Shown here piece by piece: positions 4,119 to 36,638 of a DNA stretch of 37,165 bases; within the stretch, counting starts at the first letter, position 1; the number at the start of each line of letters is the position of its first letter. The notes under the pieces were generated by a model. The model saw nothing but the letters and a program-made list of their open reading frames with translations, was not told where the DNA came from and searched no databases. A program made the position numbers and the translations under genes. Source of the DNA: a virus. The stretch lies in UHGV virus genome UHGV-0093680; one strand, 5' to 3'.

Positions 4119-4795
4119 GCGGCGTTTTCCTTAATTTGATGAACATTATTGATGCCGTAGTAATCACAAACAGTGGCATCGACGAAAGAGAGATCGTTAT
4201 CAATCTCATTAGAATCAAACATTCCCATTGGGGATTTTACAGTGTCTGCACCGTTGTTTTTCGTGGTGAAAAAGAACTGGTCATCGCGGGTAAGGGTGCG
4301 AAGAACTATAGTAAACATGCCTTCGACAGTGATTTTCTCGTCCAGCATTTTGCCGATAGTCTTCATTTTCACACGCCCCATAGGGGTTTCTTCGGTGTGT
4401 GCAAGAAAATAGACTCTCAGGTCATCAGGTGCATCCTGTGCAGCCTTAATCACCTCCCATGCGTGGCGGCCTATCTCAGTGAATTTATCAAACGATTTTT
4501 CTTCTGAGCGGCGCATAAACTCATTGCTCATCACATACTGGAAGTCATCAACAATAACGATTCTTTTCCCGTATTCGTGAGCACGCTTAATTACGGCAAC
4601 TATTACGTCCCATTTGTCAGTGGTAACTACGGTTCCTTTTTTTGCTCTGGCATCCCATGCCAGCCAGTCTTTTGATTTAAATGGAAGCGGCTTGCCTATT
4701 GGTTTTATAAGTATTGCTTCCTCTGGATTGATATTTCTCATGCTGGTTGATTTTCCGGTGCCAGATTCACCGAGTATTAATGTCGCAGTTCCCAT
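4115..4795 (-). CDS. Sak4-like RecA-fold ATPase (phage recombination protein)
   Basis: N-terminal Walker A LILGESGTGKST and Walker B-like IVIVDDFQ; about 226 aa, a RecA core only; sits where lambdoid recombination genes lie, between kil and the accessory genes. Confidence 0.7.
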   Translation of the reverse strand: MGTATLILGESGTGKSTSMRNINPEEAILIKPIGKPLPFKSKDWLAWDARAKKGTVVTTDKWDVIVAVIKRAHEYGKRIVIVDDFQYVMSNEFMRRSEEKSFDKFTEIGRHAWEVIKAAQDAPDDLRVYFLAHTEETPMGRVKMKTIGKMLDEKITVEGMFTIVLRTLTRDDQFFFTTKNNGADTVKSPMGMFDSNEIDNDLSFVDATVCDYYGINNVHQIKENAA

Positions 4796-5102: not shown

Positions 5103-5235
5103 TCTTTGGGACTCCTGGCTGATTAAGTATGTCGATAAGGCGTTTCCATCCGTCACGTAATTTACGGGTGATTCGTTCAAGTAAAGATTCGGAAGGGCAG
5201 CCAGCAACAGGCCACCCTGCAATGGCATATTGCAT
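5095..5235 (-). CDS. cIII: CIII (FtsH inhibitor, CII stabiliser)
   Basis: In-frame ATG within ORF 5095..5337 gives MQYAIAGWPVAGCPSESLLERITRKLRDGWKRLIDILNQPGVPKNG, essentially the lambda CIII sequence as I recall it (C-terminus shorter); AAGGAG 7 nt upstream. Confidence 0.85.
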   Translation of the reverse strand: MQYAIAGWPVAGCPSESLLERITRKLRDGWKRLIDILNQPGVPKNG

Positions 5236-5296
5236 GGTGTGCTCCTTATTTATACATAACGAAAAACGCCTCGAGTGAAGCGTTATTGGTATGCAT

Positions 5297-14641: not shown

Positions 14642-15290
14642 TGGCAGCAAATACCGAAATATTTGGGTAGTTGGCGATCTGCACGGATGCTACACGAACC
14701 TGATGAAAAAACTGGAGACGATAGGATTCGACACCAAAAAAGACCTGCTTATCTCGGTTGGCGATTTGGTCGATCGCGGTACAGAGAACGTCGAATGCCT
14801 GGAATTAATCACATTCCCCTGGTTCAGAGCTGTACGTGGAAACCATGAGCAAATGATGATTGATGGCTTATCAGAGCGCGGAAACGTCAATCACTGGATG
14901 CTTAATGGCGGTGGCTGGTTCTTTAATCTCGATTACGACAAAGAAATTCTGGCTAAAGCTCTTGCCCATAAAGCAGATGAACTTCCGTTAATCATCGAAC
15001 TGGTGAGCAAAGATAAAAAATATGTCATCTGCCACGCCGATTATCCTTGTGACGAATACGAGTTTGGAAAGCCAGTTGATCATCAGCAGGTAATCTGGAA
15101 CCGAGAACGAATCAGCAACTCACAAGACGGGATCGTGAAAGAAATTAAAGGCGCGGACACGTTCATCTTTGGTCATACGCCAGCAGTGAAACCGCTCAAA
15201 TTTGCCAACCAGATGTATATCGATACCGGCGCAGTGTTCTGCGGAAAGCTCACATTGATTCAGGTACAGGGAGAAGGCGCGTGGGCATAA
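14619..15290 (+). CDS. ninI: Ser/Thr protein phosphatase (lambda NinI / PPase-like)
   Basis: In-frame ATG within ORF 14544..15290; metallophosphatase motifs GDLHG, GDLVDRG, GNHE; starts [25 protein letters not shown] as in the lambda phosphatase. Confidence 0.85.
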
Positions 15291-15769
15291 GAGAACTAAA
15301 CCTCACCAAAGAACAGCACGATTGGCTGAATGGCTGGCTTGAACTGTGGGGCGCATGGGTTTATTCAGGCCGCCTGGAAAAGCGCATGAGCAGCGTAATA
15401 GCGAAGTTCATGGAGAGCGTAGAGCCGGGAAGAGTTATGACAAGGCCAATGTGTAATGATGATGATGGAATGTTGATTTCTCAGGTCGTCGATTCCGTCA
15501 TGTGCATTGACAAGAAAGCCTTTGGCATCCTCCTCAGCTACTACGCTCATGGATCTTCCAAGCATGCCATTGCATCTTACTATCATCGTGCCGCAAGACC
15601 TCGCAAGATGTTATGCCGGGGCGGCGGGCGTATTCAAAAACCATCGCTCGCAACCTGTCGCCGGGAAGTTGACGAAATCCTCAATGCCTCGTTGTTTATG
15701 ATTTACCCGGTTCTGGATAGTGCGTTTAAAAACCGGAAACGTGTAGAGAAAATTAAACATGTAGCATAG
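15281..15769 (+). CDS. Q: Q-type late antiterminator (QuuD / phage-82-like family)
   Basis: Segment LELWGAWV…[21 protein letters not shown] resembles the DLP12 QuuD-type Q as I recall it; sits after the nin block and before the late promoter; GTG start after GGAGAAGG. Confidence 0.6.
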
Positions 15770-15860: not shown

Positions 15861-15935
15861 GGGGCAGTCGTATAAAGGTCATTACGGAAGGCTGTTAACC
15901 TTCTTATCGTGGTTCGAGTCCACGCTGTCCCGCCA
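15861..15935 (+). tRNA. tRNA-like gene, anticodon GUU (Asn) by manual folding
   Basis: Acceptor stem GGGGCAG/CTGTCCC (one G-U pair), anticodon stem GAAGG/CCTTC with loop CTGTTAA, T-arm CGTGG-TTCGAGT-CCACG, discriminator G, encoded CCA; D-stem only 3 bp. Confidence 0.5.
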
Positions 15936-15940
15936 AATAT

Positions 15941-16016
15941 GCTGGTTTAGCTCCAATGGTAGAGCAGTCGCCTTGTAAGCGAATGGGTGGCGGTTCAAGT
16001 CCGTCAACCAGCACCA
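15941..16016 (+). tRNA. tRNA-like gene, anticodon UGU (Thr) by manual folding
   Basis: Acceptor stem GCTGGTT/AACCAGC, D-arm GCTC-CAATGGTA-GAGC, anticodon loop CTTGTAA, T-arm GGCGG-TTCAAGT-CCGTC, encoded CCA; one mismatch in the anticodon stem. Confidence 0.55.
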
Positions 16017-16134: not shown

Positions 16135-16350
16135 ATGAAATCAATGGACAAAATCTCAACTGGCATTGCCTACGGAACATCCGCTGGTAGTGCGGGATAC
16201 TGGTTTTTGCAGTGGTTGGATCAGGTCAGTCCATCACAGTGGGCTGCGATTGGTGTACTGGGGAGTCTGGTTCTGGGCTTCCTGACTTATCTGACAAATC
16301 TGTACTTCAAAATCAGAGAAGACAAGCGTAAGGCTGCACGGGGAGAGTAA
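16135..16350 (+). CDS. S: Class II pinholin, phage-21 S-type, with dual start motif
   Basis: [63 protein letters not shown]… is near-identical to S21 as recalled; 71 aa, two TM segments, Met1/Met4 dual starts; GGAGG upstream. Confidence 0.9.
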
Positions 16351-16354
16351 TTCA

Positions 16355-17161
16355 ATGACTCAAAACTATGAACTGATTGTGAAAGGGATCCGCAATTTTG
16401 AGAATAAAGTTACGGTAACTTTAGCGTTACGGGACAAAAAACGCTTTGACGGTGAAATTTTTGACCTGGACATCTCGCTGGACCGTGTTGAAGGTGCCGC
16501 GCTGGAGTTTTATGAGGCAGCAGCCAGAAGGAGCATCAGACAGGTCTTCCTGGATGTTGCTGCCGGGTTATGTGAAGGGGATGAGCAGTCGCCGGAAAAG
16601 CGCCCCGTAATTTTAGAGGCGCAGGATGTGTTGATAACCTGCAAAGGAAAGCTACCGGGAAGAATTACTGGTTCTCTGAAGATGCCGCCGTCAACACTGC
16701 GGTCAGAAAAAGAGGCGTCTTGTCTGCAGTCTGAGTACTCCATTACGGTTAAAAGTGCCGGAGAGGAAGGAAATAAACGTTATTTTATTGCGTCTGCACC
16801 TGATAAAGATCAGGAATGGGAGTGTAACCGGCCATCCTTTGTTGTATACGGAGATGGCGGGAAAATAACCATCTCAGAAAATGGGAAATTAACACCGCCA
16901 TCGCACCAGCATAGTGAGGCGCTCATTGAATTTGCCATTGATTACCTGAAGAACAATAAAAAGCAGGGGCTGATGAAGCGCATTGGTCATTGCATGGGAT
17001 ATCTGCAGATAGCTGCTGAGATTGAAGCGCTGGCCAGTGGTGCGGACAAGGATGCAGTTGTGCGGGAGGCTCTTCTTCGTGATTTTGATAATCCGCCCTT
17101 TAAAAAAGTGCCGGCTTACTGGTTTCATCCAGGACTGACTTATCTTAAAGGACGTATATAA
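16355..17161 (+). CDS. Unknown 268-aa protein inserted between holin and endolysin
   Basis: Starts 4 nt after the holin stop with GGGGAGAG upstream; predicted soluble; no motif recognised. Confidence 0.65.
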   Translation: MTQNYELIVKGIRNFENKVTVTLALRDKKRFDGEIFDLDISLDRVEGAALEFYEAAARRSIRQVFLDVAAGLCEGDEQSPEKRPVILEAQDVLITCKGKLPGRITGSLKMPPSTLRSEKEASCLQSEYSITVKSAGEEGNKRYFIASAPDKDQEWECNRPSFVVYGDGGKITISENGKLTPPSHQHSEALIEFAIDYLKNNKKQGLMKRIGHCMGYLQIAAEIEALASGADKDAVVREALLRDFDNPPFKKVPAYWFHPGLTYLKGRI

Positions 17162-17203
17162 GCTGGCTCGTTATCTGTTGCCGATAAATCCTGATAAATA
17201 TCC

Positions 17204-17737
17204 ATGAACACCAAAATCAAATACGGCCTGTCGGCTGCCGTTCTGGCGCTGATTGCCGCTGGTGCGCCTGCGCCTGACATTCTCGACCAGTTTCTGGATG
17301 AAAAGGAAGGTAACCACACTACGGCATACCGCGATGGTTCCGGCATCTGGACCATCTGTCGGGGTGCCACGATGGTGGATGGAAAACCCGTTTTTCCCGG
17401 TATGAAACTGTCGAAGGAAAAATGCGACCAGGTTAACGCTATTGAACGTGATAAGGCGCTGGCATGGGTGGATCGCAATATTAAAGTAACACTGACCGAA
17501 CCACAAAAAGCGGGTATCGCGTCATTTTGTCCCTATAACATTGGCCCCGGTAAGTGTTTCCCGTCGACGTTTTATAAGCGGCTGAATGCCGGTGATCGTA
17601 AGGGGGCATGCGAAGCGATTCGCTGGTGGATTAAGGATGGTGGGCGCGATTGCCGCATACGTTCAAATAACTGCTATGGGCAAGTTATTCGTCGTGACCA
17701 GGAAAACGCATTAGCCTGTTGGGGGATAGAGCAGTGA
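17204..17737 (+). CDS. R: SAR endolysin (T4-lysozyme-like fold)
   Basis: N-terminal signal-anchor-release segment [17 protein letters not shown] followed by the lysozyme catalytic region (E…D…T around [20 protein letters not shown]). Confidence 0.85.
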
Positions 17738-18171
17738 GCAGAGTCGCCGCGATTATTTATGCTCTGGTTATCTGCACCATCGTCTGCCTGTCATGGGCTG
17801 TTAATCATTACCGTGATAACGCCATCGCCTACAAAGACCAGCGCGATAAAGCCACATCTATCATCTCTGATATGCAGAAGCGTCAACGTGATGTAGCTGA
17901 ACTCGACGCCAGATACACAAAGGAGCTTGCTGATGCTAACGCGACTATCGAAAGTCTCCGTGCTGATGTTTCTGCTGGTCGTAAGCGCCTGCAAGTCGCC
18001 GCCACCTGTGCAAAGTCAACGACCGGAGCCAGCAGCATGGGCGATGGAGAAAGCCCAAGACTTACAGCAGATGCTGAACTCAATTATTACCGTCTCCGAA
18101 GTGGAATCGACAGGATAACCGCGCAGGTTAACTACCTGCAGGAATACATCAGGACGCAATGCCTGAAATAA
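17734..18171 (+). CDS. Rz: Rz i-spanin
   Basis: GTG start overlapping the endolysin stop (GTGA); N-terminal TM ([17 protein letters not shown]) and coiled coil; aligns by eye with lambda Rz (…[21 protein letters not shown]…). Confidence 0.85.
17927..18118 (+). CDS. Rz1: Rz1 o-spanin, embedded in Rz in the +1 frame
   Basis: Lipobox LLVVSAC followed by a Pro-rich periplasmic region ([16 protein letters not shown]); entirely nested within Rz. Confidence 0.8.
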
Positions 18172-18201
18172 TTTTTTGCAAATCACAAAGTCCATTTAAT
18201 G

Positions 18202-18228
18202 AGCCTCGCGATGCGGGGCTTTTTTTAC
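18202..18228 (+). terminator. Rho-independent terminator after the lysis cassette
   Basis: Hairpin AGCCTCGC-loop-GCGGGGCT followed by TTTTTTT, about 30 nt after the Rz stop. Confidence 0.75.
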
Positions 18229-18375
18229 ATCTGAATTTCACAGCGCATCTCACGCGCATATTACATCACCCGAGCCTTTCAGAAAGTTGAGCCTGAGAAC
18301 TGCCGTATATGGTGGCGACCATCTCGGGGCGGCTTTTCTGTGAGACAGGCTCACTTTCTAAAAGGTAAAGACGCT

Positions 18376-18864
18376 ATGAACCAATTAGAAGAAAAGCTTC
18401 AAAGAATGATTTCCTTATACAAGGAAGATAACTGCCAAAAAGTTCCTGAAAACATCGCAGAGTTAATGGAATTGGCAAGTGAATTTTCTGGCATGCTTAA
18501 GTCGTCAGGTGTTCGGTCAGCGTTCTTTGTTGAAATGCTGATGCACGGCGGACTTATGGCAACAATGAGACGTGTAATGGAAGACCAGAGAAAAGAACCT
18601 CCTCAGGTATACGTTTTGTCATCGAAGAAAACTGGGCTAACCAAAATTGGGTATTCATCCAACATTCCACAACGCATCAAATCGCTTGGCAACTCTGGAC
18701 CAGACTGCTTGAAGCTTGAGTGCCTGATCCCTGGTGGAAGAGAAACTGAAAACATGCTTCATCGCAAATTTGCCGCAAAGAGAAAGCACGGTGAATGGTT
18801 CGCCCTGTCCAAGGATGACATTGAGGGATTGAAATCTGTAGCGATTACTTCTGATGGCTATTAA
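18376..18864 (+). CDS. T5orf172 / GIY-YIG-like domain protein (putative nuclease)
   Basis: C-terminal motif block VYVLSS…LTKIGYSSNIPQRIKSLG…ETENMLHRKFAAKRKHGEWFAL fits the T5orf172 family as I recall it; ATG chosen inside ORF 18340..18864. Confidence 0.6.
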   Translation: MNQLEEKLQRMISLYKEDNCQKVPENIAELMELASEFSGMLKSSGVRSAFFVEMLMHGGLMATMRRVMEDQRKEPPQVYVLSSKKTGLTKIGYSSNIPQRIKSLGNSGPDCLKLECLIPGGRETENMLHRKFAAKRKHGEWFALSKDDIEGLKSVAITSDGY

Positions 18865-36376: not shown

Positions 36377-36576
36377 GTAAAGAATGTTGTTTCTGCGGCA
36401 TTAGCGAATCAGACGCTGATCAAACATACATTTACTCTAAAGAAACAGGTCGGATGCTGTGTAGTGACTGCGTGTTGGACATCATAAGATACAAGCATCT
36501 TGGATGTTCTGCCAGCATTAGCAATATAGGTGAAGTATATGAAGGGAAAGATATAACTGATAGATCAGAAAGTTGA
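36373..36576 (+). CDS. Small Cys-rich (zinc-ribbon-like) protein (67 aa)
   Basis: CFCG…CSDC pattern; ATGA overlap with the arc-like stop. Confidence 0.45.
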
Positions 36577-36638
36577 AGCCCCAACTGCGGGAACAGTCAG
36601 GGCTTCGGTTGTCAGTAAATCCGTGGAGAAAAACCAAC

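Follow-up and report, generated by a model that had tools for sequence, protein, structure and literature searches.

A long-form YdfR-family gene between the holin and the RrrQ-type lysozyme of a P22-like phage: domain architecture, origin, and a possible connection to RNase E

Between the holin and lysozyme genes of the UHGV virus genome UHGV-0093680 (37,165 nucleotides (nt); the whole of this stretch is referred to here as the window) lies an open reading frame (ORF) for a protein of 268 amino acids (aa), located at positions 16355-17161 of the plus strand (ATG start, stop codon included) and bracketed by the interval 16351-17165 that a first-pass annotation, made by a model from the letters alone, had assigned to it. 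The gene upstream encodes an S21-type class II holin of the pinholin type (16135-16350, plus strand; 71 aa; PF04971 Phage_holin_2_1 "Bacteriophage P21 holin S", E 1.4e-35; holin in PHROG) that carries the M1/M4 dual-start motif MKSM, and the dual start of the S21 holin gene is the source of the S21 antiholin (S21-71/S21-68). The TAA stop codon of the holin (16348-16350) is followed by 4 nt (TTCA) and the ATG at 16355, while a Shine-Dalgarno-like sequence, GGGGAGAG (containing GGAG; 16340-16347, plus strand; read from the sequence), is located within the 3' end of the holin gene, as the first-pass annotation had described. Downstream, a conserved 42-nt leader recognized by sequence comparison (17162-17203, plus strand) runs into the lysozyme start as ...ATAAATCCTGATAAATATCC ATG; it is identical in one related Escherichia coli locus (L002), differs at 2 of 48 positions in another locus (L093), and its end recurs in loci with short forms of the gene (L015, L017). 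The following gene (17204-17737, plus strand; 177 aa; PF00959, E 3.5e-24) encodes an RrrQ-type lysozyme with an N-terminal hydrophobic segment resembling a signal-anchor-release (SAR) sequence, with a maximal Kyte-Doolittle hydropathy over 19 residues, KD(19), of 1.74 at residue 9.

The ORF is almost certainly a long-form YdfR-family accessory gene and a normal companion of the RrrQ-type lysozyme. Residues 1-99 of its product match DUF1327 (PF07041) over profile positions 1-87 of 93 at 139.5 bits (cut-off 25; E 4.3e-41), and the full-length protein matches phrog_1085 (long-form YdfR, function unknown; a 296-position profile) at 492.6 bits (E 8.3e-148), the latter match being split in two stretches because of an internal deletion in the 268-aa form. 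Proteins of 268 aa with 97% and 93% identity to that of the window are present in public protein collections, which hold several hundred to a thousand member sequences for each of the 268-, 296-, and 329-333-aa forms. Indeed, the 268-aa form is common, with 584, 141, and 40 member sequences in three of its clusters (P0005, P0002, and P0001, respectively). Thus, the initial impression of an unrelated protein without any recognizable motif has given way to a clear family assignment, and the ORF is ordinary in kind, since the gene, the family name, and the position are already known from public annotation. The predicted solubility of the product was confirmed: its maximal KD(19) is 0.85, vs. 1.7 for both the holin and the lysozyme N-terminus, and therefore it has no transmembrane (TM) segment, whereas membrane antiholins (such as S21-71, lambda S107, and T4 RI) need a TM or periplasmic one; its isoelectric point is ~6.5. 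An NCBIfam scan of the protein and of its C-terminal part gave no match, and a profile search of PDB sequences returned coiled-coil noise only (e.g., haemagglutinin HA2). When genome contigs were scanned with the family alignment, no more than 3 Escherichia/Shigella loci were confirmed, and scans of viral contigs produced one partial relative with P0128 as the query and no match with P0137.

Comparison of lysis cassettes, one of the checks proposed in the first-pass annotation, covered the 80 IMG/VR loci whose holins are most similar (L013-L092) and the 80 loci with the most similar lysozyme (L097-L175); as the loci are closely related and the sets share members, the resulting counts are not independent. 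Every locus with an RrrQ-type lysozyme contains a DUF1327 gene (47/47 in the holin-anchored and 79/79 in the lysozyme-anchored set), and the +4-nt junction between the holin and DUF1327 genes is observed in all 47 holin-anchored and all 79 lysozyme-anchored loci with DUF1327 as well as in K-12 Qin. Among the cassettes with the canonical phage-21 endolysin (R21 type, MPPSLRKAVAAAIGGG..., 165 aa), the DUF1327 gene is present in 0/28, and the endolysin start overlaps the holin stop codon (TAATG). The DUF1327 gene thus tracks the type of endolysin and not the holin, a strict association that is new at the descriptive level. Loci with an apparently empty slot were at first taken for the same cassette without the insert, an interpretation that was rejected as their junctions show a different endolysin type, R21. 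Since the gene accompanies the RrrQ-type lysozyme in every sampled locus and K-12 Qin is laid out alike, it represents the rule and not an unusual insertion. Hence the adjacency of pinholin and SAR endolysin, assumed to be general in the first-pass annotation, holds for R21-type cassettes and fails for RrrQ-type ones, and the description of the ORF as an extra gene wedged into the cassette has to be dropped. The same annotation had considered that the ORF might turn out to be a conserved, characterised lysis accessory gene; conserved it certainly is, but not characterised.

More distant members of the family are found in other surroundings. Two Salmonella prophages (L176:2627-4301 and L178:2280-4445) carry divergent long-form homologues of 266 and 314 aa, respectively, with Q on one side and a PF16080 holin on the other; HicA and HicB, a toxin-antitoxin pair on the reverse strand, adjoin the homologue, and the lysozyme and Rz follow the PF16080 holin. 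In L178, a DUF4406 protein is encoded immediately upstream of the homologue. In another IMG/VR locus (L012:3501-4684; UViG_2913107626), a 196-aa protein that combines a DUF1327-like N-domain with a different, coiled-coil C-part precedes unrelated lysis genes. A 91-aa ORF of this locus (4409-4684), located just upstream of its holin and containing strands followed by ...SLDAYEQAAIEQY..., resembles by eye a second DUF1327-like paralogue. Judging by the Salmonella and L012 contexts, the conserved feature is a promoter-proximal position in the late operon, beside lysis genes, and not a position after an S21 holin.

The complete co-occurrence with the RrrQ-type lysozyme in the E. coli samples, together with the absence from R21-type cassettes, speaks for a rival explanation, which we nevertheless consider unlikely: the protein would be a dedicated lysis accessory of the RrrQ-type cassette, i.e., a LydB-like cytoplasmic partner restraining or timing the pinholin or the membrane-tethered lysozyme. 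Conservation of both the +4-nt holin junction and the lysozyme leader is in line with such a role, as is the observation that insertions and deletions (indels) never take the first ~75 codons, which are retained in every surveyed form. A precedent is provided by phage P1 lydB, which, according to its record annotation, encodes a soluble antiholin right behind the holin gene. Furthermore, K-12 ydfR was tied to cell-envelope integrity in an earlier screen, as that screen is cited by PMC13232886, although this result could reflect a polar effect on rrrQ. On the other hand, a profile comparison (hhalign) of the family alignment A2 with LydB yielded a probability of 0.1% (E 0.58), neither a TM nor an amphipathic membrane segment is present in the protein, its Salmonella homologues are encoded upstream of a different holin family and beside a different lysozyme, the L012 relative likewise lies ahead of unrelated lysis genes, and K-12 ydfR overexpression produced no growth phenotype (PMC13232886). 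The linkage to the lysozyme may reflect functional coupling, but it may also amount to plain physical adjacency among closely related sampled loci. Accordingly, the antiholin or lysis-timing factor suggested in the first-pass annotation is left without positive support.

Family alignments and AlphaFold2 (AF2) models divide the 268-aa protein into three parts. The N-domain (residues 1-75; 16355-16579, plus strand) corresponds to DUF1327 and is modelled as three strands (residues 5-14, 18-27, and 33-43) and a long helix (residues 50-76). It is identical to K-12 YdfR at 60 of 74 positions (81%; 71/74 positive; BLASTP E 2e-44), and it occurs in two allelic types that are separated by a synonymous divergence (dS) of ~1.4. 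The linker (residues 76-153; 16580-16813, plus strand) is probably flexible, as suggested by a predicted local distance difference test score (pLDDT) below 50 at residues 67-155 of the model. The C-domain (residues 154-268; 16814-17158, plus strand), which lies outside the Pfam coverage, is modelled as a three-strand meander with four helices, and, when modelled alone, reaches a pLDDT of 87.2 with a predicted template-modelling score (pTM) of 0.80. Thus, the structure prediction that had been recommended in the first-pass annotation yielded a confidently folded C-domain. Foldseek searches of PDB and BFVD with the AF2 model of the whole protein gave no match at E <= 0.001, the weak matches being small curved-sheet or NTF2-like fragments on the N-domain, and no relatives of the C-domain by sequence or fold were found in Pfam, PADLOC, PDB, or BFVD. 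An exhaustive HMMER search with the C-part through 1.84 billion representative proteins retrieved only 22 proteins, two of these relatives being Salmonella enterica proteins; some of the 22 show 36-45% identity in the stretch that matches. Among its relatives the C-domain is conserved down to ~32% identity, its invariant residues including H186, G211, L217, Q218, A220, A221, P248, K250, W256, P259, G260, Y263, and L264, and the overall architecture (a DUF1327-like N-domain, a middle segment, and a C-domain) is kept in relatives that are about 30-45% identical. The definition of two domains, one of them an unannotated, foldable orphan C-domain, is new at the descriptive level.

The two domains differ in their distribution. 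Of 5,426 complete E. coli genomes, 4,247 (~78%) contain DNA for the N-domain and 777 contain DNA for the C-domain. In a set of 50,697 deposited phage records, the N-domain was detected by tblastn in 101, all of them E. coli lambdoid or Shiga toxin (Stx) phages, and the C-domain occurs in only 5, all of them Stx2 phages.

The 268-aa form is a derivative of the 333-aa form by an in-frame deletion of 207 nt (69 codons). The 333-aa form occupies the identical slot and is followed by a near-identical 42-nt leader. In blastn alignments, nt 1-359 of the window gene correspond to nt 1-359 of a gene for the 333-aa form (P0032), and nt 349-807 of the window gene correspond to nt 556-1002 of the latter; the 11-nt direct repeat TCAGAAAAAGA (encoding SEK) occurs twice in the P0032 gene and once in the window gene, where the single copy left marks the deletion junction (16703-16713, plus strand). 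The segment lost from the 268-aa form is a helical middle segment, which reads as coiled-coil-like in its sequence. Toward its 3' end, the gene is altogether highly indel-prone, with forms of 104, 114, 116, 174, 183, 243, and 268 aa in the survey, and modules recombine: one locus (L087) combines the N-domain of the window protein with the C-domain of the phage 86 protein. In the O157-type Stx prophages (L005-L008:3782-5847, with stx upstream in L007), the modules are encoded by adjacent genes of their own and in reversed order, namely holin, ~+4 nt, a 213-aa protein comprising the middle segment and the C-domain, a 75-aa DUF1327 ORF, a reverse-strand 95-aa ORF, and the lysozyme. Both the repeat-mediated in-frame origin of the 268-aa form and the split, permuted arrangement in Stx prophages are new at the descriptive level.

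Such C-terminal variability, which extends to further forms of 287, 296, and 325-333 aa and includes the L087 hybrid, could also be expected of moron-type cargo for genetic conflicts (defence, anti-defence, or superinfection exclusion), in which a constant N-terminal dock would carry exchangeable C-terminal effectors. The presence of other accessory genes near lysis cassettes (a Tad2-like gene in L093, a T5orf172/MUG113 gene in the window, and HicAB in Salmonella) is compatible with this possibility. We regard it as distinctly unlikely, given that many of the "variants" are simple truncations and not alternative domains, that no PADLOC-DB 2.0 defence model matches the whole protein or residues 101-268 at E <= 0.1, and that the ORF is preceded, on the plus strand of the cassette, by no promoter-like site of its own. 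In addition, a defence role expressed from the prophage is unlikely because K-12 ydfR is essentially silent in lysogens grown under standard conditions (PMC13232886).

The first-pass annotation had itself mentioned a frame-shifted remnant as a possibility. At first glance, public annotation supports a decaying remnant or a fusion artefact without function: in L001:2755-3561 (NZ_CP051719.1) and L002:2663-3469 (NZ_CP023531.1), RefSeq/PGAP marks only the first 336 nt, as a "YdfR family protein, incomplete, missing C-terminus" pseudogene, these labelled copies coming from SCU-116 and an O104:H4-lineage strain. The internal 207-nt deletion and the many loci with truncated forms only point the same way. 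However, both of the labelled copies translate to intact 268-residue proteins, and therefore the pseudogene label is an annotation artefact; the idea that the long form is usually pseudogenised was rejected on the same evidence. The deletion is in frame, and the resulting form is, as described above, common. The pairwise ratio of nonsynonymous to synonymous divergence (dN/dS) is 0.30 in the N-domain; it ranges over 0.16-0.40 in the C-domain and over 0.3-0.86 in the linker, so that both folded domains are under purifying selection, with selection on the linker more relaxed. Along with the foldability and deep conservation of the C-domain, the intact frames and the dN/dS values largely refute the remnant explanation, which we consider very improbable indeed. 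In a spread sample drawn from the 777 C-domain-bearing E. coli genomes, C-domain DNA is often without an annotated feature. Overall, the intact long form is systematically under-annotated in RefSeq as a truncated pseudogene, which is a further point that is new at the descriptive level.

The wider genomic context of the cassette is that of a P22-like temperate phage or prophage: the window contains the P22 portal and coat genes, and its closest deposited relatives are the Sf6, HK106, and HF4s-type phages. Two Rfam elements scoring above the gathering score, a sar antisense RNA (an element of the P22 immI region; 36571-36638, minus strand) and a lambda cIII thermoregulator element (5190-5248, minus strand), confirm a P22-like/lambdoid mosaic. 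The late-gene antiterminator Q (15281-15769, plus strand; Pfam Phage_antitermQ, E 7.5e-25) is located upstream of the cassette, which places the latter in a Q-dependent late operon. Between Q and the holin, two tRNA genes are detected by both ARAGORN and the Rfam tRNA model, tRNA-Asn(GTT) at 15861-15935 and tRNA-Thr(TGT) at 15941-16016 (both plus strand). The equivalent place in related E. coli prophages (L001) is taken by tRNA-Ile/Arg/Arg, and the Asn/Thr pair of the window belongs to the late-operon leader. Past the lysozyme, the Rz spanin gene (17719-18171, plus strand, with an uncertain start codon; Pfam Phage_lysis, E 3.4e-36; phrog_13 Rz-like spanin) contains in its +1 frame an ORF (17927-18118, plus strand), found in the ORF list and read from the sequence, in which a proline-rich stretch comes after a lipobox-like LVVSAC and which is a candidate for the outer-membrane spanin (o-spanin) Rz1. 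No terminator-like site was found from the holin to the end of Rz; the only terminator-like hairpins of the plus strand are at 18149 (the end of Rz) and at 18201-18221 (just past it). The position of the ORF thus fits late expression in coupling with the holin, as had been proposed. Right after Rz, an ORF for a 174-aa protein (18340-18864, plus strand) contains a T5orf172/MUG113 (GIY-YIG-like) domain and shows a weak PADLOC match to the candidate system PDC-S57 (E 8e-6); it may be an accessory or conflict gene. The slot after Rz is occupied in L093 by a gene of the Tad2-like (anti-Thoeris) family.

With respect to function, a literature search under the family names DUF1327 and YdfR family returned nothing relevant, and one report bears directly on the family (PMC13232886). 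In this 2026 report, a two-hybrid screen yielded a fragment for residues 1-72 of K-12 YdfR, and the fragment showed interaction with constructs of both RNase E and RNase G; a signal was also obtained for full-length K-12 YdfR with Rne 1-597, Strep-YdfR co-eluted Rne 1-598, and DNase-resistant nucleic acid co-purified with YdfR (PMC13232886). Binding to the N-terminal half of RNase E and co-purification of RNA are the only biochemical properties reported for the family. Because the N-domain of the window protein shares 81% identity with this 72-residue interacting part, we propose that it could likewise dock on the catalytic half of the host RNase E, where it may also bind RNA. The sequence of events would then be as follows: as part of the Q-dependent late operon, the gene would be transcribed late, with its translation directly behind that of the holin giving a soluble cytoplasmic protein in which two folded domains are presumably joined by a flexible tether; with the N-domain docked on RNase E, the linker would present the C-domain to a second partner, so that the C-domain might contribute a second binding or effector activity; and late-phase RNA decay would be modulated at the membrane-bound machinery, possibly affecting the stability of late or host transcripts (for example). 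The holin and the timing of lysis would not be the target.

Several considerations weigh against this proposal. The RNase E data were obtained with the short K-12 protein, by overexpression and in two-hybrid assays. The authors of the report allow that the RNA might have come from a contaminant, and YdfR overproduction altered few transcripts and left growth unimpaired (PMC13232886). The C-domain, having no recognizable relatives, gives no functional clue, and it is absent from most family members (7/79 loci; 777 vs. 4,247 genomes), which means that whatever it adds is dispensable. Finally, the complete linkage to one lysozyme type in E. coli could equally indicate a lysis-related role. We therefore put forward the mechanism of an RNase E adaptor or modulator only tentatively, as a possibility suggested by homology to K-12 YdfR. 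As a whole, the best explanation of the available observations, to which we would give about even chances, is that of a regular, non-essential accessory gene of the Qin/RrrQ-type cassette of E. coli lambdoid prophages, one whose product acts at RNase E and is not a lysis-timing factor. A more specific version, in which long-form YdfR would represent a temperate-phage class of late RNase E adaptors whose DUF1327 domain tethers an orphan-fold effector and reprogrammes RNA turnover in the last minutes prior to lysis, is doubtful. In a variant of this version, the same protein would be an obligatory partner of the RrrQ-type lysozyme.

These findings leave current views of phage lysis in place. The DUF1327/YdfR family is found in ~78% of complete E. 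coli genomes and in all sampled RrrQ-type cassettes, including those of Stx-converting phages. If the protein is indeed an RNase E adaptor, then among the unexplained genes in the lysis cassettes of E. coli prophages the most widespread one would be a modulator of RNA decay and not a lysis gene. The domain architecture, the tracking of the endolysin type, the Salmonella context, and the under-annotation in RefSeq, as described here, make the question of function easier to test.

Among known systems, the lysis locus of phage P1 resembles the window cassette in being late-expressed and in having a holin gene (lydA) followed by a gene for a soluble protein, although LydB and the window protein have no detectable homology by the above hhalign comparison (probability 0.1%). 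Much closer is the founder of the family to which these proteins are assigned in RefSeq, YdfR of the K-12 Qin cassette (b1555, P76160), where essQ (a class II holin), a 4-nt gap, ydfR, and the RrrQ-type lysozyme gene rrrQ follow each other in the same order. K-12 YdfR differs in comprising 103 aa (an N-domain with a short tail) and in that the ydfR stop overlaps the rrrQ start, while the window protein has an extra linker of ~80 residues and a C-domain of 115 residues, and its gene is followed by the 42-nt leader. The same length and architecture are shown by gp05 of the Stx2-converting phage 86 (YP_794052, "YdfR family protein"; L003:2378-3184, NC_008464.1), a 268-aa protein from the same slot right behind the holin that is 81% identical to the window protein and near-identical from residue 76 on. 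Its N-domain is of the other allelic type (MKKKYEL..., dS ~1.4 relative to the window), an additional reverse-strand ORF, gp06, precedes the lysozyme in phage 86 and not in the window, and the former is an Stx phage whereas the latter is P22-like. A note in the phage 86 record, by which gp05 is "homologous to COG0188" (Type IIA topoisomerase A), is unsupported by every search and looks like a legacy annotation error.

At the functional level, the comparison extends to other proteins that act on RNase E. No sequence relationship that would indicate shared ancestry was detected with Srd, Dip, or RapZ; in particular, the profile search of PDB sequences, among which Dip of phage phiKZ is included (PMC4980113), revealed no similarity to the latter. 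As described in PMC4980113, Dip also differs in targeting the C-terminal scaffold of RNase E and not its catalytic half. The likeness to T4 Srd and to the host protein RapZ is functional only: like YdfR in the same report, both attach to RNase E at its N-terminal catalytic half (PMC13232886). Srd belongs to the early genes of a virulent phage, in contrast to the late gene of temperate phages considered here, while RapZ offers a parallel in its organization as a two-part adaptor, in which an RNA-binding part is combined with a part that contacts RNase E (PMC7430671).

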